DNA of 64,000 nucleotides, taken from contig CAZDKK010000014.1 in the NCBI GenBank assembly GCA_964506245.1, positions 21,792 through 85,791 on the forward strand. The letters run 5' to 3'. Below the pieces are notes generated by a model that had not been told where the DNA came from, ran no database searches, and worked only from the letters and a program-made list of their open reading frames with translations. A program made the translations under genes and the position numbers. Of this stretch, positions 42,416 to 64,000 are shown one piece after another; position 1 is the stretch's first letter; each line of letters starts with the position of its first letter. This stretch comes from an uncultured bacterium. GTDB lineage: Bacteria > Eisenbacteria > RBG-16-71-46 > CAIMUX01 > WJJG01.

Positions 42416-42741
42416 CTGCTTCTCCCTTCTCTTCTCGGTCCTGCCGCCCACTACTCGATCGATCTGGAGAAGTCCGGTCAATCGACTGACAAGGCCGCTG
42501 GGCCTGGGTCGATTACACACGTCAAGTATGCGACTGGCCCAGGCAAATGGGCAAGTGGGAAGGCGAGCCTGGAGTTCCCGGCGCGAGTCGCGCTCCGTTC
42601 CCCTCGGTCGTCCGGGCGGCAGCCTTCCGGGTCATGCGGGGCCCCGCGCCGCTGTTGTCACGCCCGGCGCGGGGACCTATGCTGGCGGTCGTCATGCGCG
42701 ATCCCGTTCACATCCCAGGCGTGGCCCGCAGGCGATCGGCG

Positions 42742-43977: not shown

Positions 43978-44192
43978 GTCGGCCCCTCGCCCGGCTGGCC
44001 CTCAGACGCTTGACTCCGCCCCCACGGTCTCGGATCCTGGACGCAGCTCCCGGGTGGATGCGTGTGCACCGAGAGGGCGCGGCCGTGGGGCGCTGCCGGG
44101 CCGCGCGCGTGTGAGTTCTTCCGCTGAGCGGGTGATCCCCAGGCCCGCCCGGCAAGCAGGTCGAGGCGTCTCGCCGCACAGGGAGGTCCCTC

Positions 44193-45359: not shown

Positions 45360-45372
45360 GGAGGTCGCGCGG

Positions 45373-46536: not shown

Positions 46537-46540
46537 TCGG

Positions 46541-47852: not shown

Positions 47853-47864
47853 AAGGAGGGAGGC

Positions 47865-49061
47865 ATGCCGAGAGTCGCCGTCGCCGCGTTGATCGGCGTG
47901 ATCGTGGGCTGCGTCGCCATCCCGTTGATCGGCACGGTCGTGGGCAGCGCCGGGACAGCGGCTGCTGCGGAGGGAACAGCGGGCGCGGGCGTCGAGCTGC
48001 GATCGTGGACGGTCGACCTTCCCGGCGCCGACGCAACCTTCGAGCAGACGCTCGTCTCCACGCGCATCGAGGTTCCCCATTTGTGGGGCCCGCTCGCGCT
48101 GCGCGGCTACCTGCCCCTCGCCACGAGCCGCGACGACGAGCTCGACACCGAGATCAGCGGCGCGGGCGATGCCCAGGTGCGCCTGATGTGGCCTGCGTCC
48201 GGCACGGCCTGGACCCTCAGCCTCGGCGCCGATTTCCCGACCGGCCGGACCGGACTCACCACGACCGAGGCCCTGGTCGCCACCCGCATGCTCGGCAGCC
48301 GCGTGCTGGACTTCGGCCTCAAGCGCCCCGGCGAAGGCTTCGACCTGATGCTGGGGGCGTCCCGTGCAATCCGCGCCGGTCGCACCACGGTCGCCGGCGT
48401 CGCCTTGGCCGGTCACCTCAAGGGCGACTACGCGCTCTACGAGGAGGACGGCGTCGAGCACACGGCCTCGCCGGGCAATCGCATCCACGTCGCCCTCTCG
48501 TTGCTCGCCCGCGAGCATCCCGAGGATCCTGACTGGGACCTCGACCTGACGCTGGGCGGACAATGGGCCGGCGACTACACGCTCGAAGAACGCGGCGGAG
48601 AGATCACGGTCGCGGAGGGGGCGCTGGGGACGCTGGATGCCTCGTACAGACACCGCGTGGGCGAGGAAGGGCGACTCTCGCTCTCCGCGCACCTCCTCGC
48701 GCGCGACCACGACGAGCTCACCGGCGGCAGGGCGATCGAGACGGAGTTGCTCGGGCTCTCGACGCGCTGGGTGACGGCGCTGGGGTTGGGCTACGGGCGC
48801 CCCCTCGGCACCTGGGCCGATATCTCGGCCGGCGTGAGCTACGCCCTTTACTGCAACGACCCGGCAGGCGACCTCAACAGCGACGTGACCGCGCTCGATC
48901 TGGGGCTGCACCGCGCGCTCGGCGAAAACCTGCAGTTGAACGCCTCCGCCGAGTACGCCTTCGGAAACACGATGTGGAGCGAACTGGGCGGAGACGGTGC
49001 GGCGGACCGGCGCCCGCTGACAGGAACGACTCTGGGGATCGGCCTGGAGCTTGTCTTCTAG
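47865..49061 (+). CDS. Outer-membrane beta-barrel protein
   Basis: AAGGAGGGAGG RBS; signal peptide. Alternating hydrophobic beta-strand pattern; C-terminal ...LGIGLELVF with terminal Phe typical of OMPs. Confidence 0.55.
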   Translation: MPRVAVAALIGVIVGCVAIPLIGTVVGSAGTAAAAEGTAGAGVELRSWTVDLPGADATFEQTLVSTRIEVPHLWGPLALRGYLPLATSRDDELDTEISGAGDAQVRLMWPASGTAWTLSLGADFPTGRTGLTTTEALVATRMLGSRVLDFGLKRPGEGFDLMLGASRAIRAGRTTVAGVALAGHLKGDYALYEEDGVEHTASPGNRIHVALSLLAREHPEDPDWDLDLTLGGQWAGDYTLEERGGEITVAEGALGTLDASYRHRVGEEGRLSLSAHLLARDHDELTGGRAIETELLGLSTRWVTALGLGYGRPLGTWADISAGVSYALYCNDPAGDLNSDVTALDLGLHRALGENLQLNASAEYAFGNTMWSELGGDGAADRRPLTGTTLGIGLELVF

Positions 49062-49091
49062 GACGACCGCCCCGCCAGCAAGGTGAGACGC

Positions 49092-52000
49092 ATGATTGCG
49101 CACTTCACGCTCGCTCGTCGCGCGGGCCCGCGGGTTCTGTGGGCGGCGCGAATCGCGTTCTGCGTACTGGTCCTGGTTGGCCCCACCAGCTGCGATCGGG
49201 ACACGGCCACGGTTCCCCAGCACGTCCCCAATGGCGGCTTCGGCGTCGGCCTCTGGCTTCCGCCGGATGGCGCCTGGGATGGACAAGTGCAGGCCGCGCT
49301 GCAGGACTCCTCCCAAGTGTGGCTCTACCTGCTGGGCGCCGATCCCCCGTCCCGGTTCAGCGAGCGCCCGCACCCTGACAATCCAGCGCGGCCGCCCTAC
49401 GCCCGCGCGTCGGCGGGCTTGTCCGGCGACATCGTGCTCGAGATCGATCCGCTCGACCAAGCGACTTGGTGGCGCGTCTTCGTGCGTCGCGGCGGGCTGC
49501 TCGGCCAGACCACGTTCACCCTCGCGCCGGAGGATCGCGAGCACATCGCCAATCTGATGCTCGCGCCCGAGACGGCCGTGGAAGACGGCCTCGTGGTCTA
49601 CGCCGGCCTGCCGGTCGCCCAGGGCGGGTCGCCGCCCGACGCGAGCGGATCCCTCGACGCGGGGGTGACGCTGCTCTTCCCGGTGGCCGTCGAGAACCCC
49701 ACGGCGATCGACGGCCTGTCCTTCGCCTACGCCCTCGACCTCTCCGTCGAGAGCACCGTGTACGTCGATCCCGGCAGCAGGCTGTGTGCGGGCGGGGACA
49801 GCCTCGCCTATGTGTTCTTCGTGACGCCCCTCGATGCGCAAGGCGGATGCCGGCGATTCTCCCTCAGCCTGCGTCGCGCCGAGGGCCCAGGACTCGTTGC
49901 GCCTGTCGCCGCCGGCGCCGACGTTCTCTTCTACATCGCGGCCGCGGGCGACACCGCCGGCGCGAGCTTGTGTCTCGACCGCACCTCCGTGCGCTTCAAG
50001 GTGGGCGCCGAGGAAGACACGGTACCGGCCCATCGTGTCGTGGGACCGGCCGAGTGCGAGTATCCGGTCTGCGAGGCGGCCATCTCGAGCCCGATGTCGG
50101 GCGAAGTGCTGTGCGCCGGCGCGGCTGCGACCATCACCTGGACCACGAACGCCTGCTGCGGATCGACCGTGGGAATCGCCCTCCTCCACGACCGCGTGGT
50201 CTGCCGCACGATCGCGGCGACCACCGCCAATGACGGCGAGCACGTCTGGACCGTCACCGGCTGCGGGGAGGCGCAATCCGACTACCAGATCGCGCTCCTC
50301 GATGCGAGCCAGGCGATCATCGCGGCAACGACGGGCGGCTTCAGCATCGAGCCGGGCTGCCGCATCGCCGTGACCGCCCCAGCCGGCGGTGAGCGCTATA
50401 CCGAGGGCGAGAGCCGGATCCTGCAGTGGCAGCCGGGCGGGTGTTGCGGGGACGAAGTGCGACTCGAGCTGCTCAGCGAAGGCGAACCCTGCCTGACGAT
50501 CGCCGCTACCACCGAGAACGACGGCATGTTCTCCTGGACGGTGGCGCCCTGCAGTGAGATGTACAGCGCCTATCGGCTGCGCGTGACCGATCTCGAGACG
50601 CAGGCGATCGGAGAAAGCGGCCAGAACTTCTCCATCTTTCCAGCCTGCGCGCCAATCGTCGACTACCCCAACGGCGGCGAGACATTCTGCGTCGGACAAC
50701 CCGAGACGCTGACCTGGATGGGCTTCGGATGTCAGGGTCCCATGCGGGTCGAGCTGCTGCGGGACGGCGAGTCGTGCCTCACCATCGCAGAGGATGCGCC
50801 CAACACCGGGAGCTACGAGTGGACCCCGGTGCCCTGCGAGCAGGGCGCCGGGGAATACTCGCTGCGGATCGCAGACCAACAGACCGGCGCCGCCGACACG
50901 AGCGCCGCGCCCTTCACGATCGCGCCGGCTTGCTCGCTTGGTGTCACAAGCCCGACCGCAGGCCAGGGTTTCTGCCCGGGGGATCCGGTCACGATCACCT
51001 GGACCGTCGCGACCTGCTGCGGGCCGTCTGTGGGTATCGAGCTGCTGCACAACGGTGTGAGCTGCCTGACGATTGTAGACAGCACGCCGAACAACGGGTC
51101 CTACGCCTGGATCGCTGAGCCATGCGAAGGCACAACCGGCGCGGCCCCGGCGTACAGCATCCGGGTCACCGACCCCGAGACGGAGGCGACAGGCACGAGC
51201 CCGGGGTTGTTCACGATCGGCACCTGCGAGCCGGCGATCACTGGTCCCGCCCCGGGCGCGGAGTTGTGCTTGGGCAGCACCGTGGAGGTGACCTGGACGG
51301 CCGCCGAGTGCTGCGGCGAGCTGGTGCGCGTGGAACTGCTGTGCGACGGCCTTGCTTGCGGGGTGATCGCCGATTCGACCGCCAACGACGGGTCGCTCCT
51401 GTGGACCGTGGGCGAACCCGGCTCTGCGGGTGTCAACTTCGGACTGCGGGTGACCGACCTGGAGAGCGGCAACTCCGGCACGGTCGCGCCCTTCGGGATC
51501 GCTCCGAGCTGCGCCATCGTGGTGACCGGCCCCACCGTGCAAGACGAGGTCTGCGAGGGCGCCCCGATCGAGGTGACCTGGACTGCGTCGAGCTGCTGTG
51601 CATCCCAGGTGAGCATCGAGCTCCTGCTCCTGGGGGATCCCTGCCTGACGATCGCTGCATCCACCGAGAACAACGGCCTCTACCTCTGGACGCCCGAGCG
51701 CTGCGACGGGGCGACCGAGGGCTACACGATCCGCGTCGCCGAGATCGGCGGGCAGATCGCCGGCGAGACCCCCGCGGCCTTCACCATCGGCCCGCCGTGC
51801 GCGATCGCGATCACCAGCCCCACCCCCCAGGCCACGCTGTGCGAGGGCGACCAGCTCGACATCACCTGGTCGGCCAGTGCCTGCTGCGGCGACCTCACGC
51901 GGATCGAGCTCCTGCTCAACGGCACGGTCTGCGAAACGATCGCGACCGTGCTCCAGGGCAGCTCCTATGCGTGGACCGTCGCCGCCTGCGGATCGCCCAC

Positions 52001-53231
52001 CGACAACCACGGCGTGCGCGTCACCAACGTCTCCACCGGGCAATCGGACGAGGTCACGGGCCTGACGATCCACCCGGCCTGCGCCCTGGATCTGACCTAT
52101 CCGGACGGCGGTGAGACGCTGTGCGCCGGAGAGACGGTCGAGATCCTGTGGACTTATGGCGCCTGCTGCGGCCGCACCGTTGCGATCGATTTGCTGCGCG
52201 ACGGCATTTCCTGCCGCAGCATCGCGACAGCGGCGGCCAACACAGGCCACTACGCGTGGACCGTCGGCGGCTGCGGGACCGCAACCCAGGGGTACCAGGT
52301 CCGCGTCCGGGACCTCTCCACCATGACGGAGGCGACGAGCGCCGTGACCTTCTCGGTCGAGGCCGAGTGCGCCATCACCATCACCAGCCCGGGCTACGGC
52401 GACGAATATTGCGCCGGCGATTTGGTCGACATCGAGTGGCTGGCCTCGTCCTGCTGCCCCGACACCTTCACGGTCGAACAGCTTTGCGACGGCGCGGTCT
52501 GCGCAACGATCGCCGTCGGGGTCACCGGCTCGTCGTACGCCTGGGAAGCGAGCATCCCCCCGGGCAGCCTGGGCAGCTACACGATCCGCGTCCGCGGCGG
52601 GGACTACGCCGGTGAAAGCGACGTCTTCACCGTCAGCGACGAATGCATCGTGTACATCAACTATCCCAACGGGGAGGAGGAGCTGTGCGAGGGTGATCCG
52701 ATCACGATCACGTGGGGTCACGAGCTGTGCTGCGGATCGTCCGTCGGAATCGCGCTCCTGCGCGAGGGGGTGGTAGTGGATGTCATCGCCTCGTCGACCG
52801 CCAACGACGGCTCGCACCCCTGGACACCGGAGCGGTTCAACTCGAGCTCGGTGGGCTACCAGATCCAGATCACGGACTTGCAGACCGGCGTCGTGGATCT
52901 GTCGGATGCCATGTTCCGCATCAACCCCGAGTGCTACATCGACGCCAACGCGCCGAACGGTGGTATGTACTATCCTGAAGAGCCGGTCACCATCGCGTGG
53001 GACTACAGCCCCTGTTGCGAGGGTCCGGTTCGCATCGAGCTGCTTCTCGAGAGCGAACCCTGCGCACCGCCCCTCGTGATCGCGGCGTCGACGCCAAACG
53101 ACGGCCTCTATACTTGGCCCGCCGTGCCATGCGGGAGCGAGCCGTTCCCCTACACGGTGCTCATCACGCACCTTGGCACCGGGGTCTCTAGCACGACGCG
53201 GGAACCCTTCTGGATCACGCTGGAGGACTGA
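49092..53231 (+). CDS. Giant cell-surface protein with 11 tandem Kre9/KNH-like (Ig-fold) Cys-containing repeats
   Basis: N-terminal signal/anchor. Eleven repeats of ~95 aa share [IV]TW.......CCG..V.[IV]ELL.DG..C.TIA.ST.NDG.Y.WT...C....Y.[IL]RVTD. No T9SS CTD at the end. The GTG at 49083 is the track start; the ATG at 49092 is preferred. Confidence 0.7.
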   Translation: MIAHFTLARRAGPRVLWAARIAFCVLVLVGPTSCDRDTATVPQHVPNGGFGVGLWLPPDGAWDGQVQAALQDSSQVWLYLLGADPPSRFSERPHPDNPARPPYARASAGLSGDIVLEIDPLDQATWWRVFVRRGGLLGQTTFTLAPEDREHIANLMLAPETAVEDGLVVYAGLPVAQGGSPPDASGSLDAGVTLLFPVAVENPTAIDGLSFAYALDLSVESTVYVDPGSRLCAGGDSLAYVFFVTPLDAQGGCRRFSLSLRRAEGPGLVAPVAAGADVLFYIAAAGDTAGASLCLDRTSVRFKVGAEEDTVPAHRVVGPAECEYPVCEAAISSPMSGEVLCAGAAATITWTTNACCGSTVGIALLHDRVVCRTIAATTANDGEHVWTVTGCGEAQSDYQIALLDASQAIIAATTGGFSIEPGCRIAVTAPAGGERYTEGESRILQWQPGGCCGDEVRLELLSEGEPCLTIAATTENDGMFSWTVAPCSEMYSAYRLRVTDLETQAIGESGQNFSIFPACAPIVDYPNGGETFCVGQPETLTWMGFGCQGPMRVELLRDGESCLTIAEDAPNTGSYEWTPVPCEQGAGEYSLRIADQQTGAADTSAAPFTIAPACSLGVTSPTAGQGFCPGDPVTITWTVATCCGPSVGIELLHNGVSCLTIVDSTPNNGSYAWIAEPCEGTTGAAPAYSIRVTDPETEATGTSPGLFTIGTCEPAITGPAPGAELCLGSTVEVTWTAAECCGELVRVELLCDGLACGVIADSTANDGSLLWTVGEPGSAGVNFGLRVTDLESGNSGTVAPFGIAPSCAIVVTGPTVQDEVCEGAPIEVTWTASSCCASQVSIELLLLGDPCLTIAASTENNGLYLWTPERCDGATEGYTIRVAEIGGQIAGETPAAFTIGPPCAIAITSPTPQATLCEGDQLDITWSASACCGDLTRIELLLNGTVCETIATVLQGSSYAWTVAACGSPTDNHGVRVTNVSTGQSDEVTGLTIHPACALDLTYPDGGETLCAGETVEILWTYGACCGRTVAIDLLRDGISCRSIATAAANTGHYAWTVGGCGTATQGYQVRVRDLSTMTEATSAVTFSVEAECAITITSPGYGDEYCAGDLVDIEWLASSCCPDTFTVEQLCDGAVCATIAVGVTGSSYAWEASIPPGSLGSYTIRVRGGDYAGESDVFTVSDECIVYINYPNGEEELCEGDPITITWGHELCCGSSVGIALLREGVVVDVIASSTANDGSHPWTPERFNSSSVGYQIQITDLQTGVVDLSDAMFRINPECYIDANAPNGGMYYPEEPVTIAWDYSPCCEGPVRIELLLESEPCAPPLVIAASTPNDGLYTWPAVPCGSEPFPYTVLITHLGTGVSSTTREPFWITLED

Positions 53232-53260: not shown

Positions 53261-53794
53261 TCACCCCTCCGCCGGCACCTGCCGCGTCTCCTTCACCTCC
53301 AGGAAGAACCGCTCTCCCGCCTGGAGACCGCCGGCGCCCCCCTTGATGAAAGGTCCGATCAGTATCAGCGTGAGCACGATCGATGTGAACGTGCGCGACT
53401 TGCCCTTGAACGCCTGGCGGCCTTTGATCGCCACCGGGACCTGATCCCCGCCCACCTCGATCCAACCGTCCGTGAAGACGACCTGGCCGGCTTTGCCGAA
53501 CATCCCGTTCCCTTTGGCCTCTGCGACCACGAGCACGCCCTCGGTCCCAGCCGGGACCGCCACCTGCTCGTGCACCACCACGTCACTGACGACGCGGAAA
53601 TGCACCTGGCCCTCGGCCTCGACGCGGCCACCGGTGGCATCGTCGATCATCTCGGCCTCGATCTCGCAACCCTCGCGCAGCGTGACCATCGTCTGGGCGG
53701 CAGCGGTGAGCAGCGGCAGCGGGAGCTGTCCGATGATCAGCGCGCCCATGAGGACCATCACCAACCCTCTGCGCAGGTTCTTCGCGCGAAGCAT
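53261..53794 (-). CDS. Hypothetical small membrane-associated protein
   Basis: Internal ATG 53794 with AAGGAGG RBS; N-terminal signal/TM, beta-rich middle, C-terminal hydrophobic segment SIVLTLILIGPF; last gene of the minus-strand operon. Confidence 0.4.
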   Translation of the reverse strand: MLRAKNLRRGLVMVLMGALIIGQLPLPLLTAAAQTMVTLREGCEIEAEMIDDATGGRVEAEGQVHFRVVSDVVVHEQVAVPAGTEGVLVVAEAKGNGMFGKAGQVVFTDGWIEVGGDQVPVAIKGRQAFKGKSRTFTSIVLTLILIGPFIKGGAGGLQAGERFFLEVKETRQVPAEG

Positions 53795-53808
53795 GGGAGA
53801 CCTCCTCC

Positions 53809-54618
53809 TTACTGCTCGATTCGATACACCACATCCGCGATTCGCTGCGGCTCTCCCCCACCCGCCTCGTAGAGGCACCAGAGGTCGTAGCGCCGCACGG
53901 GTCGGTAGGCCAACGTCGCGATCGAGATCTCGGAGCGCCGCTCGACCGGCAGCTCGCTCAGGGCGCCGCGCATGAGGCGCCGCACCGCCTTCGTCACCCG
54001 CGATGCGAGGATGCGAACCGCGGCCCCCTCGCCGAGGGCCGCCGACACTTCGGCCACTTGCTGTTGCGCCGCGGGCGACAGAGGCTCCGAGGAATTCGAG
54101 CCTTGGCCTGCGGTTGCGGCCGCCCCCGCGCTCGTGGCGGGCTGCAGCATCTTCGCGTCGATCGTCAGCGCCGCGCACTGGTCGCCTTCGAACCAGCGAT
54201 CCCGGAAGAAGCCGGCATCCTCGTAGGCGAAGGGGTCGGCACCCCCCTCCAGGTAATCATTGTGGGGGATCGTCAGGAGCTGGTGGAACCAGGCCATACG
54301 CCCACCCGCGTCTACGCCCTGTCGCAGGACTTTGCCCACCAGGTGCGTCGTGCCGGCGCCGTCATCGCTCCGGGGGATCGCGCCGGCACCATCTTCGCCC
54401 CGCGGGGTCACACTGCCCCCCACACCCGCATCCCCGCTCGGCACGGCCACGTGATACAAGGCGCCGCCGAAGTCCGGCGTCAGGATCTCGCCCCACGACT
54501 TGCACGCCTCCACGGCCTGCTGGGCGAGCTTGGGCGTAATGCCCTCGGAGCGCGAGACCAGCGTGAATCCCTGTGTGAAGGTGAACGTGCCGTAGACGAG
54601 CTGTTCGACGCGGATCAT
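53809..54618 (-). CDS. Hypothetical protein (unknown function, co-operonic with the GTPase)
   Basis: ~270 aa, GGGGA RBS, no TM helices, Gly/Ala-rich low-complexity stretches, no domain recognised. Confidence 0.45.
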   Translation of the reverse strand: MIRVEQLVYGTFTFTQGFTLVSRSEGITPKLAQQAVEACKSWGEILTPDFGGALYHVAVPSGDAGVGGSVTPRGEDGAGAIPRSDDGAGTTHLVGKVLRQGVDAGGRMAWFHQLLTIPHNDYLEGGADPFAYEDAGFFRDRWFEGDQCAALTIDAKMLQPATSAGAAATAGQGSNSSEPLSPAAQQQVAEVSAALGEGAAVRILASRVTKAVRRLMRGALSELPVERRSEISIATLAYRPVRRYDLWCLYEAGGGEPQRIADVVYRIEQ

Positions 54619-54691
54619 CACGTCCCCTTCGCCAGAGGCCTACACCGGGCGCATCCCCTGCGCCCATCGACTGCGCGTCGACGCCGCTGCA

Positions 54692-57049
54692 TCAGAGGTT
54701 CGGCAGCGCCGTCGTCAAATCGGGGAAAGCGACCGTCACCCCCAGGTTCCCGCGGAAGACATGCCGGCCGCCATCCTCCTGGATCTGGAAGAGCGCCCAG
54801 CGGCCGCTCACCTCCCACTCGTCGACGATCTTGTTGCCGGTGCTCTTCGGGTCGGTCTTCTCGATGCCGATCTTGACCGCGTCGCCCGGCTTCCAGCGCA
54901 GGCGTCCGGGCAGCCCGGGCTCGATGTCAGTCGGGTCCCAGGCGTTGGTCTCGGTGTTCCACACGCGCAGATGATAGCCCCGCGGGCACTCGCTGGCTTC
55001 GACCTTGACCAGCATGCCGCTCTTCTCGACCGCTTCGATCTTGCCGAGGAAGCGCTGGACGCGCTGCGCGTCGGGCGTGCCGGCGAAATCGCGCGTAAAG
55101 TTGCGCAGGCGCCCTTTGAACGCCTCGCTGAAACGGTAGTCCAGGCCGCTGCCCTCCATGTCCTGGATGATGCTGTCCAGCTCCTCGCCCGCGCCGGCCG
55201 ACGCCACTTCCTGGCCCAGGCCGCTCAGGCTGGACGCAATGCGCCCACCGATCGCCTGGCCGTTGACCGGACCGATGCTGCGGAGCTGCGCCGCGATGCC
55301 CGCCAGCTCGTCGGGATTGTCCTGGGCCCCGATCGCCCGCTCGAGCAGCCCGCCGATCTCGCGCACGTTGACGTAGGTCGTGCGCCACGGCCCGGTGTCC
55401 TGCAGGTCATCGGCATAGGCCTCGACGTACGCCTTGCACAGGTCGTTGATCCGCTGCAAAGCCGACCACGAGCGCCCGCCCAGACCCGCGACGCCGCGGA
55501 TGATCTGGTCGAGGTCCTGGCTGCGCACGTCCCCCATCACGCCGGTCTGCCGCTGCCGCCAGCGGCTCTGCCACTCGCTCACGTTCTCGGGCCGGAAGAG
55601 CTGCTTGATCGCCGCATCGACGTCTGCCGGGGCCGCGCGCGAGCCGGCGAGCATCGGCTGCAGGCGCCGCTCGACGAAGGCGCGGTCCCACTCGCCCTCG
55701 CGCCGCGCGAGCGTCTCGTCGCACGAGCGGTACTCCTGCGACGCGGAGGGGAACTGGTCGCGCATCTCGCGCATCGCCCGGCGGGCTTCGGAGAACTCCT
55801 CATAGGCAAGACCCGGCACCGCGTCGCGCATCTTGGCCGAGAGCGCGCGGGCCTGTTCGTACTGGAGGATGAGGCCGGCCGTCTCGCGGAATTCGGGCTT
55901 GAAGAAACCAGCCAGCAGGCTGTTGCGATAGCCCTCGAGCGCGTCGACCTTCTCCGCGGCCGTGCCGCCGCCCACGCCGCCCAGGCCGGCGAGCTTGCGG
56001 ATCTTCTGGATGCGCCCCTCGTGCCAGGCGTTGACCAGCGAGAAGAGGATGATGAACACTGCCGCCGCCCCGGCGATCCACCACTTGATCCGCTGCGCGA
56101 TGAGCGCCTTGCGCTTCTCCATGAGGAGGTGCACCGACCAGACGAAGGGCCGCTCCAGTCCGACCGGCCGCAGGTCCTTCGGCGGCCGCGTCTCGCCCGC
56201 CGGCGTGCGCTCGAGCCCGCCGGTCGAGGAGATGAAGAAGATCTGCAGGTCGGGTGACTTGGTCAGGCAGTAGTCCACGAGGGGTTTCAGCAGCGAGAGC
56301 GCGCGGTCGACCTGGTCGCGCCAGGGCAGATGGCGCGCGACGTGCGGCTGCTGCAGGACGGCCGAGACGAAGCTGTCGTAGCCGCGATAGCGCGAGTAGC
56401 GGATGGTGTCGCCGACCAGGACCACCTGGTCCTCGCCCTGGAAGCCGTCGAGCAGGTCGGCCTTGGTGATGACGACCGCCACCGGGATCTTCAGGCGATT
56501 GCGCGCGCCCTCGACGAGCTGCGCGAGCATCAGCTCGAACGAGTCGATCTTCTTGCGCCGGCGCACGCTGGCCTCGCGCCCCTCGACGATCAGGTCCTCG
56601 GCGTCGACCAGCACGAAGACGGCGTCGCAGCTCTCGAAGTATTCGAGGAACCCCTTGCCCGTCTCGACCTCGCGATCGATCGAGATGCTCTCACCCTGGT
56701 AGTCCTGCGACTCGAACGGGTAGCGGATGGTCGTGTCGATCACCGCCGTGAAGCGGTAGAGGCGCTCGGTCGCGGTGGGCGGCGGCCACTGCCCGGCGGC
56801 GAGCAGGTCGAAGTAGCTGCTCATGTCCTGGCGCGTCTGGAAGTCGTCGGTCTCGAGGGAGAAGTCGCGCCGGCCGTGTGTCTTGTGCCACAGCATCGTC
56901 AGGAAGACGGTCTTGCCCGCCCGCGTATGACCGAAGATGCCGATCTTGCGTTCTTTCGGGCGGCGTCCTCCACGCTTGGCCTGCGCCTTGGCCGCCTGTC
57001 CTTGCACCTTCTTGGCCTGCGTCGCGCCTTTCTTGAGCAACTTGAACAT
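54692..57049 (-). CDS. Membrane-anchored P-loop GTPase with large periplasmic C-terminal region (TssM/IcmF-like topology, hypothesis)
   Basis: G1 GIFGHTRAGKT, G3 DYQGE, G4-like VVITKADL. A single TM (IKWWIAGAAAVFIILFSLV) lies at ~aa 300, then ~460 aa of predicted periplasmic region. The ATG is 3 nt after the upstream gene's TGA. Confidence 0.6.
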   Translation of the reverse strand: MFKLLKKGATQAKKVQGQAAKAQAKRGGRRPKERKIGIFGHTRAGKTVFLTMLWHKTHGRRDFSLETDDFQTRQDMSSYFDLLAAGQWPPPTATERLYRFTAVIDTTIRYPFESQDYQGESISIDREVETGKGFLEYFESCDAVFVLVDAEDLIVEGREASVRRRKKIDSFELMLAQLVEGARNRLKIPVAVVITKADLLDGFQGEDQVVLVGDTIRYSRYRGYDSFVSAVLQQPHVARHLPWRDQVDRALSLLKPLVDYCLTKSPDLQIFFISSTGGLERTPAGETRPPKDLRPVGLERPFVWSVHLLMEKRKALIAQRIKWWIAGAAAVFIILFSLVNAWHEGRIQKIRKLAGLGGVGGGTAAEKVDALEGYRNSLLAGFFKPEFRETAGLILQYEQARALSAKMRDAVPGLAYEEFSEARRAMREMRDQFPSASQEYRSCDETLARREGEWDRAFVERRLQPMLAGSRAAPADVDAAIKQLFRPENVSEWQSRWRQRQTGVMGDVRSQDLDQIIRGVAGLGGRSWSALQRINDLCKAYVEAYADDLQDTGPWRTTYVNVREIGGLLERAIGAQDNPDELAGIAAQLRSIGPVNGQAIGGRIASSLSGLGQEVASAGAGEELDSIIQDMEGSGLDYRFSEAFKGRLRNFTRDFAGTPDAQRVQRFLGKIEAVEKSGMLVKVEASECPRGYHLRVWNTETNAWDPTDIEPGLPGRLRWKPGDAVKIGIEKTDPKSTGNKIVDEWEVSGRWALFQIQEDGGRHVFRGNLGVTVAFPDLTTALPNL

Positions 57050-57052
57050 GGC

Positions 57053-57964
57053 TCACTCCACCCGGCCGGCTTCTTGGTAGTAGCGCTCGAGGATCTGCAC
57101 CTGCTGTCCCTGGCGCCAGCCCCAGAAGGCCAAGGTCAAGAGGACGAGGACCACGGCGATGGCCATGTAGGCGAGCTGCATCCGGTAGACCATCTTCCAG
57201 CGGCTCAGGCGCCCGAAGGTCGCGCGCCCGCGCCCCAGCGAGGCGAACCACTTGCGCACGCGCGCCCAGAAGCCCTCGCGCGCGATGTAGCCGTGGCGCT
57301 CGAGGAAGTAGCCCAACGAGCGCCGGACCGGCGCGACCTCCTGGAAGAAGCCGGCCTCGGCCAGACGCTGTTCGAGCGTGTGCGCCTTCAGCGCGAGGTT
57401 GGGGACGTCGCTGTGGCGCACGCGCCGGCGCCCAAGCTCGAGCAGCAGCGTATCGGTCCGCGCCTCGCGGACGCTGTCGATCGTCTGATCGTCGCGCCAG
57501 TGGCCGCCGGGGTCCTTGTCCTCGAGGAAGCGGGAGACCTCGTGCACCAGGTAGTAGCGCAACCGGTCGGCATCCTGGAGCGCGGCCTCGTCGAAAATGA
57601 GCGGCACAAGCTCGTCGTAGATGAACGGCCCGTCGATGGACGAGGTCGTGCGCTTCTCCTGCGACAGCTCGTAGCCCTTGCGGTGGCCGCGACCCTCGTT
57701 GGCGTAGTTCTCGAAGAGCGTCGCCAGGAAGTGCGCGATGATGACGCGCAGGCCGGGTTTGTCGAAGTCGATCGGCTGGATCAGCTCGTAGAGCTTCTGA
57801 TCCATCTCGGTGAGGCGCGCGTCGTTGCCGCGCAGGTTCTTGAAGTCGTCCAGCACGCCGATCAGGTTGCGCTCGAGGCTGTCCTGGTTGAGCGCCCCGG
57901 GATCGCGGTCGAACGCCTCGGCCTGGCGGAAGACTTCCTCCAGTTGCTCGATGCCGACGCCCAT
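57053..57964 (-). CDS. C-terminally TM-anchored cytoplasmic protein (TssL/DotU-like topology, hypothesis)
   Basis: AAGGAG RBS 9 nt upstream of the ATG; ~260-aa helical cytoplasmic part; single TM MAIAVVLVLLTLAFWGW near the C-terminus. Confidence 0.5.
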   Translation of the reverse strand: MGVGIEQLEEVFRQAEAFDRDPGALNQDSLERNLIGVLDDFKNLRGNDARLTEMDQKLYELIQPIDFDKPGLRVIIAHFLATLFENYANEGRGHRKGYELSQEKRTTSSIDGPFIYDELVPLIFDEAALQDADRLRYYLVHEVSRFLEDKDPGGHWRDDQTIDSVREARTDTLLLELGRRRVRHSDVPNLALKAHTLEQRLAEAGFFQEVAPVRRSLGYFLERHGYIAREGFWARVRKWFASLGRGRATFGRLSRWKMVYRMQLAYMAIAVVLVLLTLAFWGWRQGQQVQILERYYQEAGRVE

Positions 57965-57999
57965 CCCGCACAGCTCCTTTCAGACTCCCGGGTCGGTGA

Positions 58000-59457
58000 C
58001 TACAGGTAGTACACCCGGATGTCCGTGTCCTTCTTCTGGAGCAGCTCCTTGAGATCGACGACGCCCGAGGAGCGCAGCGTCAGGTAATTCGCATTTTCAC
58101 GCTTGTTGCGCTCGACCTCCATGAGGAGGTAGATGCGCCCCGGCCGCTCCTTGAAGTCGGGCTGCAGCTCCGGGCAGTAGAGCGGGCGATCGTCGTTGAC
58201 GCCGCCCTTCAGGCGGATGTCGCGCTCGTCCACGCCCGGGGCGACATTGTTGCGCAGCACGAAGAGGACGCTGCGCAATGCCCTCGTCTCCAGATCGCGG
58301 AAGTAGAGCACCTGGCTCTCCTCCGTGAAGCTGCTCTCGATCTTGTTCACCTCGAGCAGGTAGTAGTCCTGCTGGCGGTAGGTCACCTTGGGCTTGGGCG
58401 CTTCGGCCACCTCGCCGCCCGCGGAGGTGAGCTTCTCGCCGATGAACCGCAAGCAGTCGCGCGTGTAGTCGAGGAGCTGCGCCCCCTCGCGCATCTGGCG
58501 TCCCATGGCCTCGTGCACGTAGGGCGAGGCGACGTAGCGCGCAACTTTGTTGTGAAATTCGATGCCCCCCGCGGGCCCCGGCAGGCCCCCGGTCTGCAGG
58601 AAGTGCTCGTCGAGCTCGGATTTCACGGGTGAGGCCCCCGCGAGCGCGTTGGCGAAGACGCGCAGCAGCGAGCGCAGCGATCCCACGAAGAGCGGCGGGG
58701 GCGCTTCCTCCCAGCCCCCGAGATGCTCGATCGCGATGGACCAACCGGTGAGGATCGCATCCAGCGTGCCGCGCGCGGCCAGGTTCCACGGGTGCATGTC
58801 GGCGGCCGGCGGGGTCGCGCGCAAGACCTCGACGACCTCGTCGAGCGCCACCTGCCCCACGCGGCGGATCTCGTCGGTCGTGCGGCGCAGCGTCTGGGTG
58901 GCGCCGATCGTGAAGGCCGGCGGCAGGTACTCGGCGCTTTCCTCGGCCTTGTAGTTGGCCACGGCGATCTCGGCGATCTTCAGGCAGGAGCCGTCGCCGG
59001 GCGCCTGGGACTCGACCAGCAGCACCTCGTAGCTCGCGGTCCGGCGCGGCGCGTTCCCCGAGGCATCCGGCGCACCCAGCGGCTGCTTCTCCGCGCGCAC
59101 CCGCAAGAAGACGGGAATCGTCTGGGACGGCTGGGGGTTCAGCTCGAGCGTGCCGATCACCGGGTAACGCTCCTGGGCCTCGCTGTCGGCATCGATGTGG
59201 ATGAGCGTTCCGTCGCGCGTGACCGCGCGGCAGTGGAGCACCTCGACCCGCAGCCGGTTCTCGCTCTCGATCGAGGCGCGGACCTGCAGGGGCGGGGCAT
59301 CGCCCGGCGATGCGGCGAGCAGCCCGTGCAGGGGCAGCCCGTTGCGGACCAGCCAGCGCAGCGCCTCCTCGTGGTAGCGTTCCTGCGCCTCGAAGTGGGC
59401 CCGGGAGACGAGCATCCCGTCCCACCAGTTCACGGACGTCAGATCCAGTCGCCGCAA
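58000..59457 (-). CDS. TssK-like (T6SS baseplate family) protein, hypothesis
   Basis: Proposed TTG start at 59457 is 7 nt after AAGGAGGG; the upstream part of the track ORF is Arg-rich junk. N-terminus LTSVNWWDGMLVSRAHFEAQERY resembles the TssK N-terminal motif (V.WsEGmFL.PQHFQQ.D.Y); ~486 aa, which is TssK-sized. Confidence 0.5.
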   Translation of the reverse strand: MRRLDLTSVNWWDGMLVSRAHFEAQERYHEEALRWLVRNGLPLHGLLAASPGDAPPLQVRASIESENRLRVEVLHCRAVTRDGTLIHIDADSEAQERYPVIGTLELNPQPSQTIPVFLRVRAEKQPLGAPDASGNAPRRTASYEVLLVESQAPGDGSCLKIAEIAVANYKAEESAEYLPPAFTIGATQTLRRTTDEIRRVGQVALDEVVEVLRATPPAADMHPWNLAARGTLDAILTGWSIAIEHLGGWEEAPPPLFVGSLRSLLRVFANALAGASPVKSELDEHFLQTGGLPGPAGGIEFHNKVARYVASPYVHEAMGRQMREGAQLLDYTRDCLRFIGEKLTSAGGEVAEAPKPKVTYRQQDYYLLEVNKIESSFTEESQVLYFRDLETRALRSVLFVLRNNVAPGVDERDIRLKGGVNDDRPLYCPELQPDFKERPGRIYLLMEVERNKRENANYLTLRSSGVVDLKELLQKKDTDIRVYYL

Positions 59458-59808
59458 ACCGCCAGCCCTCCTTGCGCGCGGGCAAGGCCCGTGCGGGTCG
59501 AACGATAGGGTGCCGAGGGCGCCGGGGCCGCCACGCTCAATGCCGGGAGTTTGGCACAGGGCCGGGGGGGTGTCCAGGGTGGGGATGGTGGGGGCATGGT
59601 CCCGTCCCACCCCGGCGATCCGGTGCGAGGGAACCTGGCTCCGCCGGGCGGTTTGGATGAGATCAACGGCGACCCCGGGGACGGACCTGCGGCAGCGAGC
59701 AGGCACGGGCGTGCGGCGGTGGGCGAAAGGGGCTCGTTGTCCGAGTGCGCGAGCGGCTCTCCTGTGCCCTGAAGCCCGCAGTCTGAGACCAAAGGGAGGA
59801 TACTCATC

Positions 59809-60000: not shown

Positions 60001-60087
60001 CCGCCTCATCGGGAGCAGGTCACCGCCACATTCCTCGCGGGCGCGAGTGAGCGCTGGCCAGTGACGAAGCGTTGCAGGGAGGAACTG

Positions 60088-62496
60088 ATGCGCAAGCAGA
60101 TCATCGCGCGGGCGGCTCTGTTGCTTCTCTCACTGATCGCCACCTCGACCGCCCTGGCCCAGGAAACGCGCGAGGTGAGCTGGAGGTACTACCGCCCCGG
60201 CAACACCGGCATCCAGGGCGACTACTGCGAGGCCATCTGGATCGGCCCCGACGGCGATCCGTGGATCGGCGGCTACGATCCCAGCTTCGAGGAGGGCGGC
60301 GTCGCGAAGTTCATCCAGGCGGAGAACCGCTGGGTGAACATCTCGAACATCGACTATCCCGTCATCGGGCACCCCGACATCACCGGCACGACGCGGGTGA
60401 GCGACATCGTTCCCGACGCGCAGGGCAACCTCTGGATGGCGACCTGGCGGGGCGCGCTGCGCCTCGACCCCGCGGTCGGTCCCTCCTCGCTCGTGAACTA
60501 CGCCTCCGCCAGTCCGGCCCTCGCGAACGGCGGGTGCCGTGACCTCGACTTCTCGCCGGACGGCAAGGTCTGGTTCGCCCTGCTGGGATTCGGCAGCAGC
60601 ATGGGCGGCATCCTGCGCCACACGCCAGGCACCGGCGATTGGCACTACTGGACGGGTGGCAACCCGCCGCAGGGCGGCAACAACTGGCCGATCCTCGTCT
60701 GGAGCGTGCGGTCCGTGTCCGTGCAGCCCAAGCCGGGCGGCGGCTACATCGTCTGGGGCGATGCGGACAATGGGTCCTCGATCGTCGCGTTCGACTCGGG
60801 CACGCAGCTCTGGACCTACTACGAGTTCTCTTACACACCCGGCAGCATGCTCGACATGCCCGGCAGGGAGAGCGTGGACGCCGCGGGCAACCTCTGGATG
60901 ACGCGCTTCGTCGACTTCGTCGGTGGCAACGCCGTCTTCTCCCTCGACTACCGCCGTCCCGACGGGACGTGGGTCACGCCCCCACAGACCCCCATTCCCG
61001 CGGGCAGCCCATCGATCTGGGCTTTTCGCGCGTTCGGTGACCGGCAGGCGCTCCTGGCCGATGGCAACGGCCGGATCTGGCGGTACAACGGCACCGCGTG
61101 GCAGGACCTCGGCATCTGGCGGTCGGGCGGATACACCTACGACGTGTTCATGGATGAGGCGGGCGTCGTCTGGGCCAGCGGCACGGGCGGCGCTGCCCGG
61201 CGCGATCCGGGCACGGGCGCCTGGCAGCTCTACCGCATCACCAACACCAGCCAGTATGACCTCTTCAACTCCGACTTCTCCCTCGATGCGGCCACCGGCC
61301 ACGTCTACGCGTGCGCCAATGCAGGCCCCGGGTACGGCGGCATGACGATGTTCGACGGCACGCGCTGGATCGGGTTCAACGACTACACCTATGGCCTCGG
61401 TGTGTCGTGGCCGTTCCCCACCGACAACAGCCAGGCCGTCGGCTTCCGGCCCTCGAACGGCAGCGTGGCGGTCAATCCGACGTACAACGGCATCCACCAG
61501 TGGAACGGCAGCACCTGGACCAACCTGAACGGCATGAGCGAGAGCCGCGGACTCGTCGAGGATTCGCTCGGGCGGCTCTGGTCGCTGGGCAACTACTTCG
61601 AGCTCCGCTATCACAACGGCACGAACTGGGTCTCGGTGCCGAACAACGGCGCCTGGGGCAACAACATCCAGCCCGATCCCGATCGCCCGGGAACCGTCTG
61701 GGTGAGCACCTATGCCGAGGTCATCCGCACGGACGGCAACTACCGCTTCTCGCGGACTTACAATCAGTTCCCCGAGCTCAACCCCCAGAGCGACATCTTC
61801 GGCACCGTCGCCGCCGGTCACGATGGCATCGCCTGGCTCGGCTCGACCCAGGGGTTGTTCAGGCTCAACGCCAATACCGGAACCTACGAGTACTTCACCG
61901 ATGTCGGCGGCATCCCCTGCCTCGGCGCAAGCCCCATGGCGGTGACCCCCGACGGCCGCGTCTGGTTCGCCATGTTCGACCCCTACGGCACCGGCCCGCA
62001 CGGTCTCGTCTGGTTCGACGGCGTCGACGCGGGCATCTTCCCCGCGCCGCGGGATGGAGGGCCGCAGTGGGGCGGTCTGCCGCACGCGCAGATCCGCCAG
62101 ATGCAGGTGCGCGAGATCCCGGGGGCCTATGAGCTGTGGATGATCTGTGTGAGCCGCGGTCTGGCGGTCCTCACGGTGCCCATGGTCGATCCCGCCGGCG
62201 TTCCCCTCGCGTCCGCGCCGGTGCGGCTGGCGCTCGAGGCCCGACCCGGTCTCTTCAGCGGCAGCGCCGAGGTGCTGTTCGATCTCCCTGCGTCAGGCCC
62301 GGTGCGTCTCGCCGTGCTCGATGTACAAGGCCGCGAGGTGCGCCGCCTGCTCGAGGGCGAGCTGCAGGCTGGTCCGCAGCGGGTCCGCTGGGACGGACGC
62401 GATTCGGGTGGGCGCGAGATCCCGGCGGGGGTGTACTACTACGATCTCACGACCGCCGCGGGGAGGTCGACGGAGAGGACGGTGCGGGTGCGGTGA
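60088..62496 (+). CDS. Secreted beta-propeller (two-component-regulator-propeller-like) protein with T9SS-type CTD
   Basis: Signal peptide from ATG 60088 (or 60061). Repeated W/G-rich blades (GNLWMAT, GRIWRYNG, GVVWASG). C-terminus GVYYYDLTTAAGRSTERTVRVR. Confidence 0.65.
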   Translation: MRKQIIARAALLLLSLIATSTALAQETREVSWRYYRPGNTGIQGDYCEAIWIGPDGDPWIGGYDPSFEEGGVAKFIQAENRWVNISNIDYPVIGHPDITGTTRVSDIVPDAQGNLWMATWRGALRLDPAVGPSSLVNYASASPALANGGCRDLDFSPDGKVWFALLGFGSSMGGILRHTPGTGDWHYWTGGNPPQGGNNWPILVWSVRSVSVQPKPGGGYIVWGDADNGSSIVAFDSGTQLWTYYEFSYTPGSMLDMPGRESVDAAGNLWMTRFVDFVGGNAVFSLDYRRPDGTWVTPPQTPIPAGSPSIWAFRAFGDRQALLADGNGRIWRYNGTAWQDLGIWRSGGYTYDVFMDEAGVVWASGTGGAARRDPGTGAWQLYRITNTSQYDLFNSDFSLDAATGHVYACANAGPGYGGMTMFDGTRWIGFNDYTYGLGVSWPFPTDNSQAVGFRPSNGSVAVNPTYNGIHQWNGSTWTNLNGMSESRGLVEDSLGRLWSLGNYFELRYHNGTNWVSVPNNGAWGNNIQPDPDRPGTVWVSTYAEVIRTDGNYRFSRTYNQFPELNPQSDIFGTVAAGHDGIAWLGSTQGLFRLNANTGTYEYFTDVGGIPCLGASPMAVTPDGRVWFAMFDPYGTGPHGLVWFDGVDAGIFPAPRDGGPQWGGLPHAQIRQMQVREIPGAYELWMICVSRGLAVLTVPMVDPAGVPLASAPVRLALEARPGLFSGSAEVLFDLPASGPVRLAVLDVQGREVRRLLEGELQAGPQRVRWDGRDSGGREIPAGVYYYDLTTAAGRSTERTVRVR

Positions 62497-62614: not shown

Positions 62615-64000
62615 CTACCCCTCCAATCCCAGCTCCCGCCGGATCGACCCGAAATCGAACCGCTGCCCGGCGGGCAAGCGCGCCTCGCGGTTCTCACCTT
62701 CCTTGAGCAGCAGATCGACCTGTTGCCGGCCGGCCTTGGTGCGCACGGCGGCGCGCGGCGTTTCATTGCCGAGCGCGGGGATAGGCTGGTCAATCCAGTC
62801 GGCGTAGTGTTTCGCCTTCACCGCGAGAAGAAGTTGATCCCCCTCCGCCGATCTCGGTTCGGGGGCTGTGGGCTCTGCGGCGGGCCCACCTGCGCGAAGC
62901 TGGGCCAGCGGATCGACATGCTCCCGGGTACGGTGACGAACCAGGCGCCCGAGCGACGACTCCGTGAGCGCGCGCAAGCCATCCGCTCGCTTGACCGAAT
63001 TGGTCTCGACTCGCAGCGCCTTGTCGCTGAGGACGGCTCTGCCGATGACCGTGTTCTCCCAGCTCCGATGCATCGGGTTGCCCGCTCTGGTGTAGACGTA
63101 GACCGATTCGCGATCGCCCGGCTCCGACTCATCCACGATGTCCTCGATGGACGCCAGGCGGCGCTGGATCTCCGCCCGATCAGCCGGCGCGAGCGCGAAA
63201 TGGTCGATCGTGAGCAGCAGGGGGTCGCCGTCGGTGTTCTTCAGCTCGTGCGGCTGGCGAGCCCGGATCTCCGCTTCCTCGACCGCCTCTTCCCAGCATC
63301 GGATCATGTGGCGGCCGATAGCCTCGCCCCGCAGGCGATCGATTGGCACGGCGCTCTTGCGGCGCAAACGTTGCTGCACGCGCTCGACCACATCGGCCGC
63401 ATCCCGCGGCGGGAGCGAGCGATGGTGGACGCCGCACAGCACAGACTGCTCCTGATCGTCCACGACTCGGGCCAGCAGGGCATCGCGGAGGCGCAATGAC
63501 TTCGAGGCCGTCGTCTCCCACACCGAACGGGTCTCGCCCGTGAGCAGATCCTTCAGGACCAGGCTCTTGCCCGGGTTCACCTCGAGCACTTCCCAGATCG
63601 AGAGCCAGGCGGCCCGCTGCGCGAGCAGCCAGCGGACCTCCTCCTCGGGAAGCCGGGCGCCGCGGTCTACCAGGAACCACTCCGCGATGGGCTTGCCCTC
63701 GAAGTGGTGATGGTAGAATGCCCACGGACCTACCAGCGCACCGGGCATCGACAGATCGCCGAATACTCGGGCAGGCCGCGCCATCCAGTCGGGCCCGAAG
63801 CGGCCGCGGGCGTACTGGTCCATCTGTTCCACCAACCGGCCGTCAAGATCGTGGGCCGCCGCGCGGGGCTCCTCGGTGTCGTGGCGCGCGCCGGGGTCGG
63901 CCGCGCGTGGCCGCGCTGGCCCGACCTTGTTGACGGTGAAGAGCCCGGCGGCTTGAGCCGGCAGCGTGAATCGCACTTCGATGTCCTCTTCGTCGAAGTA
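62615..64000 (-). CDS. Hypothetical protein, 5' end beyond window
   Basis: Reading frame is open to the window edge (YFDEEDIEVRFTLP...). ~460 aa visible; charged/helical; no domain recognised. Confidence 0.5.
   Translation of the reverse strand, partial: YFDEEDIEVRFTLPAQAAGLFTVNKVGPARPRAADPGARHDTEEPRAAAHDLDGRLVEQMDQYARGRFGPDWMARPARVFGDLSMPGALVGPWAFYHHHFEGKPIAEWFLVDRGARLPEEEVRWLLAQRAAWLSIWEVLEVNPGKSLVLKDLLTGETRSVWETTASKSLRLRDALLARVVDDQEQSVLCGVHHRSLPPRDAADVVERVQQRLRRKSAVPIDRLRGEAIGRHMIRCWEEAVEEAEIRARQPHELKNTDGDPLLLTIDHFALAPADRAEIQRRLASIEDIVDESEPGDRESVYVYTRAGNPMHRSWENTVIGRAVLSDKALRVETNSVKRADGLRALTESSLGRLVRHRTREHVDPLAQLRAGGPAAEPTAPEPRSAEGDQLLLAVKAKHYADWIDQPIPALGNETPRAAVRTKAGRQQVDLLLKEGENREARLPAGQRFDFGSIRRELGLEG

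Follow-up and report, generated by a model that had tools for sequence, protein, structure and literature searches.

What does a type VI secretion system (T6SS) baseplate adaptor do beside two membrane proteins in a stretch of DNA that shows no tube or sheath gene? The question is raised by a cassette of five co-directional open reading frames (ORFs) on the minus strand, positions 53261–59457, of a 64-kb segment of contig CAZDKK010000014.1 from an uncultured bacterium. The whole 64-kb segment is referred to here as the window; its G+C content is about 67%, and its nearest named relatives are metagenome-assembled genomes of Candidatus Eisenbacteria. An initial annotation, made from the sequence of the window, likened the first three products to TssK, TssL, and TssM and offered two readings, a T6SS membrane module reused for another purpose or a GTPase-centered envelope system that mimics TssKLM superficially. 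Neither describes the locus best; the cassette resembles TssKLM in function and synteny, which is more than a superficial likeness. Since relatives carry the same genes within a complete T6SS operon and sister loci are physically joined to one, we conclude that the cassette belongs to a T6SS. With a probability of about 0.68, it encodes TssK and the envelope-anchoring (membrane-complex) module of an undescribed non-canonical T6SS, the structural operon of which is probably located elsewhere in the genome.

Gene Organization of the Cassette

The genes are ordered 5' to 3' as g1-g2-g3-g4-g5. Their assigned products are a TssK-like baseplate adaptor (g1, positions 58000–59457, 485 residues), a tail-anchored all-helical cytoplasmic protein (g2, 57053–57964, 303 residues), a single-pass inner-membrane GTPase of the DO-GTPase2 family (g3, 54692–57049, 785 residues), a short homologue of GTPase-associated protein 1 (GAP1) that has the N2 and M domains and no C domain (g4, 53809–54621, 270 residues), and a small exported β-rich protein (g5, 53261–53794, 177 residues). 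The spacers are 35 nt between g1 and g2, 3 nt between g2 and g3, about 70 nt between g3 and g4 (54622–54691), and 14 nt between g4 and g5; the range of 3–35 nt given previously holds for three of these and is exceeded at g3-g4. All five genes are genuine and intact, and purifying selection acts on every one of them. The ratio of nonsynonymous to synonymous substitution rates (dN/dS) between the window and its 90% relative is 0.10–0.18 for all five, and the G+C content at third codon positions (GC3) is 0.84–0.94 in the four ORFs that pass a codon-position filter, a list from which g5 is missing. The ATG start of g5 has AAGGAGGAGG just ahead of it. For g1, a TTG start at 59457 preceded by a ribosome-binding site had been proposed, and both elements are found: the Shine-Dalgarno sequence AAGGAGGG, read from the sequence on the minus strand at 59466–59473, lies 8 nt before the TTG, and this start is supported because orthologues begin at the same residue, most of them being 485 residues long with an alignment consensus that opens MRRLDLxSVNWWDGM. 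The families of g1, g2, and g3 are very small, with about 8–12 orthologues each in a database of 5.8 billion proteins; for the g3 of the window itself, the only record is a contig of 6.4 kb.

The TssK-like Protein

The TssK-like N terminus recognized in the initial annotation is upheld by profile comparisons. The g1 product matches Pfam T6SS_VasE (PF05936) with 25 bits against a gathering score of 23.4, over profile positions 1–194, and matches TIGR03353 with an E value of 9e-13 and 48 bits as compared with an equivalog cut-off of 100. Alignment of the TssK-like family with canonical TssK by hhalign gave probabilities of 96.6–97.9%, the best (97.9%, E = 6e-13) covering residues 7–198 only; the references for this and the other hhalign comparisons with TssK, TssL, TssM, and TssJ were taken from Escherichia coli Sakai and five proteobacterial plasmids. 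The sole part that can be aligned to canonical TssK is the "shoulder" domain (residues 7–200, positions 58858–59439, minus strand). Alignments of the family end at residues ~200–275 and do not extend through the C-terminal head, and a search of the Protein Data Bank (PDB) with the g1 profile found no TssK chain. On these comparisons g1 is a genuine relative of TssK in its N-terminal shoulder domain only.

The two halves of g1 differ in constraint. In canonical T6SSs, the TssK shoulder domain binds the TssF/G wedge. Within the window subclade the shoulder of g1 has a dN/dS of about 0.2, and its N-terminal motif is invariant in an alignment that includes both 88–90% relatives. The C-terminal domain, which has a family-specific sequence, is the most constrained part of the protein, with a dN/dS of 0.03–0.07. 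As the C-terminal head of canonical TssK contacts the membrane complex (PMC10781749), a family-specific and highly constrained head fits co-adaptation to a different anchor.

A Complete T6SS Operon in Wider Relatives

An exhaustive search with the g1 profile yielded 424 relatives, the nearest group of which consists of proteins of ~480 residues that align over the full length; one of these, from candidate division Zixibacteria, carries the NCBI name TssK. This nearest full-length group was located in 80 metagenome loci. By hidden Markov models (HMMs), a g2-like gene lies directly downstream of the tssK-like gene in 67 of the 80, a g3-like gene follows in 53, and a g5-like gene comes next in 37. 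Clustering of the ORFs gives a strictly collinear operon, clpV-tssB-tssC-hcp-vgrG-tssE-tssF-tssG-tssK-g2-g3-g5, in which Pfam identifies the genes preceding tssK as those for ClpV, TssB (VipA), TssC (PF17541, E = 4e-69), Hcp (PF17642), VgrG, TssE (gp25), TssF (a weak match), and TssG. ClpV, TssF, and TssG are present in all 31 loci with a full upstream flank, and VgrG and TssE are each present in 30; TssG is upstream of the g1 homologue in 31/31 and directly before it in the operon maps inspected. Downstream, where 34 loci have enough sequence, clustering finds the g2-like protein in 32, the GTPase in 32, and the g5-like protein in 25, the misses of g2-like and GTPase genes being artefacts of the ORF caller. 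GAP1 occurs in only one of the 80 loci, L126, where the T6SS operon is complete and a GAP1-N2 protein is encoded directly after the GTPase.

No TssJ, TssL, or TssM and no TssN, TssO, TssP, TssQ, or TssR were found in the operon of these relatives. Membrane or export features are found in g2, g3, and g5, and no other protein of the 12-gene operon gave a membrane-component match. The TssC of the operon matches, among plasmid records, only the TssC of Bacteroidota T6SS-iii, and the sheath and tube proteins are closest to the T6SS-iii type of Bacteroidota. The carriers are uncultured bacteria, among whose relatives only Candidatus Eisenbacteria and candidate division Zixibacteria have names.

Sister Loci Joined to the Structural Operon

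Among closer relatives the five genes, described initially as one operon, co-occur in the same order on at least 10 independent contigs (window/L001, L002/L003, L140, L012, L008, L009, L010/L137, L004/L011, L135, and L136). In all five sister loci that are informative (L137, L009, L004, L135, and L136), a structural operon stands head-to-head with the cassette. In L137, genes for TssF (cut), TssE, VgrG, two Hcp proteins, TssC, TssB, and ClpV, all on one strand, lead up to the cassette, which is read in the opposite direction as TssK-like, g2, GTPase, GAP1, and g5; L009 shows this arrangement too. In L004, L135, and L136, ClpV is accompanied by TssB, to which L135 adds TssC, and an Ig-like protein of ~1600 residues is encoded between ClpV and the cassette. 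This insert (L004, 2166–7187; L135, 4508–9283; L136, 3267–8075) is ASH/HYDIN-like with faint Pfam matches.

A third arrangement is seen in L005/L006/L007, contigs from JGI 3300057040 and Logan, which encode a g3-like membrane GTPase of 29% identity with no TssK-like gene or GAP1 and have a ClpV-like gene 8.6 kb downstream. Their flanks encode two PD40 β-propellers, a PEGA and outer-membrane-protein barrel protein, a PAAR-motif/Ig protein, DcrB, and an M14 peptidase. Two 398-residue products encoded upstream of the distant GTPase in L005 were considered as TssK-like proteins and rejected, since they are PD40 β-propellers.

The Membrane GTPase

The g3 product scores 39.4 bits with DO-GTPase2 (PF19993), above the gathering score of 27, and the same family is matched by 45/45 T6SS-linked g3-like GTPases. 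Its cytoplasmic GTPase domain (residues ~34–300, positions 56150–56950, minus strand) contains the GHTRAGKT, DYQGE, and TKAD motifs noted earlier, and these are conserved: GHTRAGKT (G1), Thr72, DYQGE, TKAD, and SSTG are invariant columns in the alignment of 45 sequences. The topology described initially, a single transmembrane (TM) helix with a large extracytoplasmic domain and no N-terminal TM hairpin, is also what we find. Hydropathy places the helix at residues 321–339 (56033–56089) with about 445 residues outside, and the N terminus is a Lys-rich helix in place of the TssM-type hairpin that precedes the NTPase. In an AlphaFold2 (AF2) model with a mean predicted local distance difference test score (pLDDT) of 75, and of 80–95 outside the membrane, the order is GTPase domain, TM helix (a low-pLDDT helix in this model), long helical domain, and C-terminal β-sandwich. 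The last two, residues 364–677 and 679–775, make up the extracytoplasmic part (54725–55960, minus strand), and the motifs of the β-sandwich are common to the distant homologues P0010–P0012. A Foldseek search of the model against the PDB gave no match at E ≤ 0.001 and only generic helical repeats, and a PDB search with the g3 profile gave only P-loop noise.

The GTPase core is probably related to that of TssM. IcmF-related_N (PF14331) is matched by g3 with 19.6 bits, below its gathering score of 25, and is matched below threshold by 28 of the 45 family members, with a best E value of 4e-5. By hhalign, the GTPase family aligns with full-length TssM at 65–69.5%, and the GTPase domain aligns with the TssM NTPase domain at 90.6% (E = 1e-6). 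The domain-restricted alignment spans the P-loop, Walker B, "PVALVITKADILPGF" versus "PVYVxLTKADLLxGF" (TKADLLxGF), and "FFISSTG"; in a control comparison with FlhF, the P-loop alone was aligned. Planctomycete DO-GTPase2 proteins align with the g3 family at 99.5% and with TssM at 16.5%. The core of g3 is therefore a probable homologue, remote and specific, of the TssM/IcmF NTPase in that domain only. The periplasmic IcmF-related and IcmF_C domains gave no Pfam or NCBIfam match in g3, so that the IcmF/TssM-like character initially ascribed to the protein holds, as a remote similarity, for the GTPase core and not for the periplasmic part. With the stress GTPase YcjX (PDB 6nz4), g3 has only the GTPase fold in common; YcjX lacks TM and periplasmic domains, and its gene stands in a different genomic context.

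The GAP1 Partner and the Relation to Conflict Systems

The g4 product, which had been described as matching nothing recognizable, is a GAP1-N2/M protein, a partner of DO-GTPases. It just misses the Pfam gathering score of 24 with both GAP1-M (21.9 bits) and GAP1-N2 (20.5 bits), and its orthologue in L126 passes for GAP1-N2 with 31 bits. Another 42 loci turned up in a scan of GTDB genomes; almost without exception they are from Planctomycetota, and they match the GTPase domain of g3 only. In about 25 loci, the g4 family HMM matches the ORF directly downstream of the planctomycete DO-GTPase2, with E values down to 1e-17, and in the planctomycete loci the g1, g2, and g5 HMMs gave no match. Therefore g3 and g4 constitute a DO-GTPase2/GAP1 pair, and the origin of the other three genes (g1, g2, and g5) lies elsewhere.

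A DO-GTPase with GAP1 is the constant pair of the "GTPase-centric" conflict systems described by Kaur, Burroughs, Iyer, and Aravind (2020, PMC7159879), who also described membrane-anchored GAP1-N2 versions in planctomycetes. The cassette could accordingly be read as an ordinary intracellular DO-GTPase2/GAP1-N2 anti-phage system that lies near T6SS genes by coincidence. The likenesses are that Pfam places g3, with its Walker B glutamate (DYQGE), in DO-GTPase2 above the gathering score and g4 in GAP1, that the GAP1 gene is directly downstream of g3, that a C-terminal TM helix followed by an extracytoplasmic β-domain has been described for the type (PMC7159879), and that planctomycete relatives carry the same gene pair. 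However, the five cassette proteins include no FNIII-repeat protein, no N-terminal zinc ribbons, and no variable effectors; there is a single GTPase, and the GAP1 has no C domain. PADLOC, which gave no family for g1, g3, g4, or g5 and one weak match for g2 (E = 0.044), returned nothing significant, and no defense system was matched. Above all, the cassette and its relatives are embedded in or adjacent to T6SS loci, and a strictly collinear place within T6SS operons in dozens of divergent loci is not a matter of chance. Because of this synteny we reject a plain conflict system, to which we assign a very small residual probability. Neither PMC7159879 nor one of its supplementary files mentions TssK, T6SS, or baseplates, and our literature search found no paper that links DO-GTPase/GAP1 with T6SS or describes this type of operon.

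Two side observations concern these genes. In L140, a 90% relative of the cassette, an extra gene for 561 residues with no Pfam match (8375–10060) is inserted between g4 and g5. In 9 of the about 42 Planctomycetota loci (L017, L018, L013, L021, L022, L016, L024, L050, and L051), the DO-GTPase2 and GAP1-like pair adjoins flagellar genes: L017 and L018 have flhA, flhF, and the GTPase gene on one strand, with a GAP1-like ORF next in L018; three Kuenenia loci have FliF just upstream; and four others have flhA and/or flhF within 6–10 kb. The GAP1-N2 section of Kaur et al. (PMC7159879) is silent on an association with flagella. These neighbors hint that this branch of DO-GTPase2 serves envelope machines in general.

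The Tail-anchored and Exported Proteins

The product of g2 has a helical secondary structure in its AF2 model and, by hydropathy, a single C-terminal TM helix at residues 264–282. It matches no known family in Pfam or NCBIfam, and a PDB search with its profile gave nothing relevant. Like TssL, it is a helical cytoplasmic protein that is anchored by one C-terminal TM helix and encoded beside tssK. Of the TssL/DotU topology attributed to g2, the tail anchor and the position are retained, and no DotU signal accompanies them (0/54 family members by Pfam). By analogy of position and topology, g2 takes the TssL slot, with no detectable homology to TssL.

For g5, hydropathy indicates an N-terminal signal-like segment and a short hydrophobic stretch at residues 136–157. 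The signal, the C-terminal hydrophobic segment, and the lack of a family match agree with the initial description, and the length is 177 rather than 178 residues. There is no lipobox, in that a Cys after the signal peptide is missing from the 18 alignment rows inspected out of 34. By position, g5 takes the TssJ slot, with no detectable homology to SciN.

Comparison with Known T6SSs

The tssJ-K-L-M block of the proteobacterial T6SS-i has its counterpart here in tssK with genes for a small exported protein, a tail-anchored protein, and a large membrane NTPase. Homology to T6SS-i components extends to the N-terminal domain of TssK in g1 (97.9%) and probably, as a remote relationship, to the TssM NTPase in the core of g3 (90.6%). 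The order of cytoplasmic NTPase, TM helix, periplasmic helical domain, and C-terminal β-domain in the AF2 model of g3 is also that of TssM. In contrast with T6SS-i, the cassette gives no signal for DotU, SciN, or the periplasmic IcmF-related and IcmF_C domains; g3 has a Lys-rich helix where the N-terminal TM hairpin would be and belongs to Pfam family DO-GTPase2; g5 has no lipobox; the C-terminal half of g1 cannot be aligned; and a GAP1 partner is added. A diverged but canonical TssJLM trio was considered and rejected, as only the NTPase core of g3 gives any signal.

With the Bacteroidota T6SS-iii (PMC10781749) the relatives' operon shares sheath and tube proteins that match PF17541 and PF17642, a TssC that matches only Bacteroidota, the absence of canonical TssJLM, and a locus that can be split. 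It differs in that tssG and the tssK-like gene are adjacent with no tssN between them and in that TssO, TssP, TssQ, and TssR are absent. The topologies also differ, since TssN has five TM helices and TssQ, TssO, and TssP have N-terminal anchors. Among complete genomes, T6SS-iii with TssNQOPR was found only in Bacteroidota, its loci are often split, and the origin and order of appearance of the two known membrane complexes, TssJLM and the unrelated TssNQOPR, were left undecided (Bongiovanni et al. 2024, PMC10781749). A literature search on T6SS in Zixibacteria or Eisenbacteria and on new T6SS subtypes found no prior description, and the present variant is therefore regarded as new.

Split Locus or Orphan Module

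Two groups of results weigh against the proposal that g1, g2, g3, and g5 form the adaptor and anchor of a T6SS. (i) HMMs for ClpV, TssB, TssC, Hcp, VgrG, TssE, TssF, and TssG, built from the relatives' T6SS clusters and able to detect these genes in sister loci, found none of them in the 64-kb window, which bears out the absence of sheath and tube genes noted initially. In the 88–90% relatives L002 and L140, the visible upstream sequence (7.5 and 2.5 kb, respectively) holds no structural gene; the window itself extends 4.5 kb beyond the start of g1. A T6SS in the genome of the window is therefore unproven. (ii) The role as membrane complex is assigned from topology, gene position, and the presence of no other membrane protein in the operon. 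DotU models (PF09850 and TIGR03349) match neither g2 nor its 54 family members, hhalign of the g2 family with TssL gives 1%, and the AF2 model of g2 is poor (mean pLDDT 61). The periplasmic part of g3 aligns with that of TssM at only 0.6%, and the g5 family has no Pfam match, no relation to SciN, and an hhalign value of 0.1% with TssJ. Anchors of the TssNQOPR type or of another type could be encoded elsewhere.

The first group of results is what would be expected of a true orphan, in which the lineage lost the contractile parts and kept TssK, g2, the GTPase, GAP1, and g5 as an autonomous, envelope-anchored GTPase-switch module. Such a module might serve in "conflict" or in envelope sensing as a DO-GTPase2/GAP1-N2 system, with the TssK shoulder, which is like a phage receptor-binding protein, as its sensor or scaffold. 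The absence of structural genes is common to all three members of the subclade (the window, L002/L003, and L140), the cassette is under purifying selection there, g3 and g4 are the core pair of the systems of Kaur et al., and the shoulder is somewhat less constrained than the C-terminal domain. However, only 2.5–7.5 kb of upstream sequence is visible in the subclade, every informative sister locus is joined to a T6SS operon, the shoulder is still under purifying selection with its N-terminal motif unchanged in the closest relatives, and split loci are common in T6SS-iii (PMC10781749). We regard a true orphan as unlikely. Because relatives carry the module as part of a complete non-canonical T6SS, the orphan appearance most likely reflects a split locus, and we infer that this is more likely than loss of the contractile parts. 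It is similarly improbable that the cassette survives as a free-standing envelope machine, with an inner-membrane GTPase switch regulated by GAP1 and a domesticated TssK trimer serving as cytoplasmic sensor or scaffold after loss of the contractile parts; if true, this would be a case of exaptation of a T6SS anchor and would reveal kinship between DO-GTPase "conflict" systems and anchors of the TssM type.

The second group of results bears on whether g2, g3, g4, and g5 are structural. They might instead be accessory regulators that control the assembly or firing of the T6SS, like the TagF/Fha/PpkA modules of post-translational control. In that case a different structure would serve as the anchor, or there would be none, as has been suggested for some contractile systems. 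A GTPase paired with GAP1 resembles a switch, the GAP1 is dispensable in most operons, homology to TssL, TssJ, and periplasmic TssM is absent, and the conserved CsgG/TPR/outer-membrane-barrel operon that converges on the cassette nearby (see below) could supply envelope parts. Against this, g2, g3, and g5 are near-universal in the operon (32/34, 32/34, and 25/34), and they are its only membrane-component candidates among 12 genes. The extracytoplasmic part of g3, of about 445 residues, and the probable homology of its core to the TssM NTPase also argue for a structural role, as does the C-terminal head of TssK, the part that binds the membrane complex in canonical systems and that is here family-specific and extremely conserved. 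Regulation without anchoring thus seems rather improbable, and an anchoring module of a T6SS is the reading that we prefer.

Proposed Mechanism

As an anchoring module, the cassette would operate as follows. The anchor slot after tssG-tssK would be filled by g2, g3, and g5, with g4 as the GAP1 partner of the GTPase in the clade of the window and in L126 only, and the GAP1-associated, TssM-related DO-GTPase2 protein g3 would take the place of TssM. The TssK trimer would use its conserved N-terminal shoulder to bind the TssEFG wedge, and its family-specific, very strongly conserved C-terminal head would dock on g2 and g3 at their cytoplasmic faces. Whether g3 is bound to GTP or GDP, a state that the GAP1-like g4 would help to set, may gate docking of the baseplate or firing, and the periplasmic domains of g3 together with g5 may span the envelope.

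An anchor of this composition looks like a third solution besides TssJLM in Proteobacteria and TssNQOPR in Bacteroidota, and one that is widespread in uncultured bacteria. Its central protein, g3, is a bona fide GTPase that links the DO-GTPase2 family with the TssM NTPase, so that an ancestral anchor in the form of a TssM-like GTPase can be hypothesized. The operon also provides a cellular context for DO-GTPase2 and GAP1, two uncharacterized families so far known, from comparative genomics only, as the cores of "conflict systems," and suggests that GAP1 regulates docking or firing. In addition, the families offer markers suited to HMMs for T6SSs that models of the TXSScan type would call incomplete.

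Genes Surrounding the Cassette

A possibly linked operon on the plus strand (44136–53231) converges on the cassette. By Pfam it encodes TPR+CsgG-like lipoproteins (44136–45359 and 46119–47852), a MetA-like outer-membrane barrel (47853–49061), and a giant secreted Ig-repeat protein (49083–53231). The same gene set is convergent to the cassette in distant T6SS loci (L121, 15273–21440) and in the sister loci L004, L009, L012, L135, and L136. Synteny is kept between lineages that share only about 25% identity in the TssK-like protein, the giant protein being of Ig/laminin-G type. From this conserved synteny, the operon may be an outer-membrane partner or cargo of the T6SS.

The divergent neighbor of g1 (60061–62496) encodes an 811-residue β-propeller with a C-terminal FlgD_ig domain. 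C termini of this type occur on large secreted proteins of the window at 1–1767, 40253–42631, and 60061–62496, the carriers being a C25 gingipain-like peptidase, an LVIVD-repeat propeller, and a Reg_prop propeller, and they fit a gene content rich in surface proteins across the window. In a related locus, the FlgD_ig-type domain co-occurs with matches to type IX secretion system sorting domains. Farther upstream, 3 kb from g1 and on the minus strand, a 453-residue ORF (62615–63976) with a C-terminal antitoxin domain of the Xre/MbcA/ParS type stands where sister loci carry clpV. A scan of the whole window against Rfam gave no match. Between 26000 and 32000 the G+C content falls to 0.60–0.64 as compared with about 0.68, no Rfam family is found, and the minus-strand ORFs at 27226–29172, 29081–30223, and 30238–31764 fail the GC3 filter; this region may be foreign DNA.

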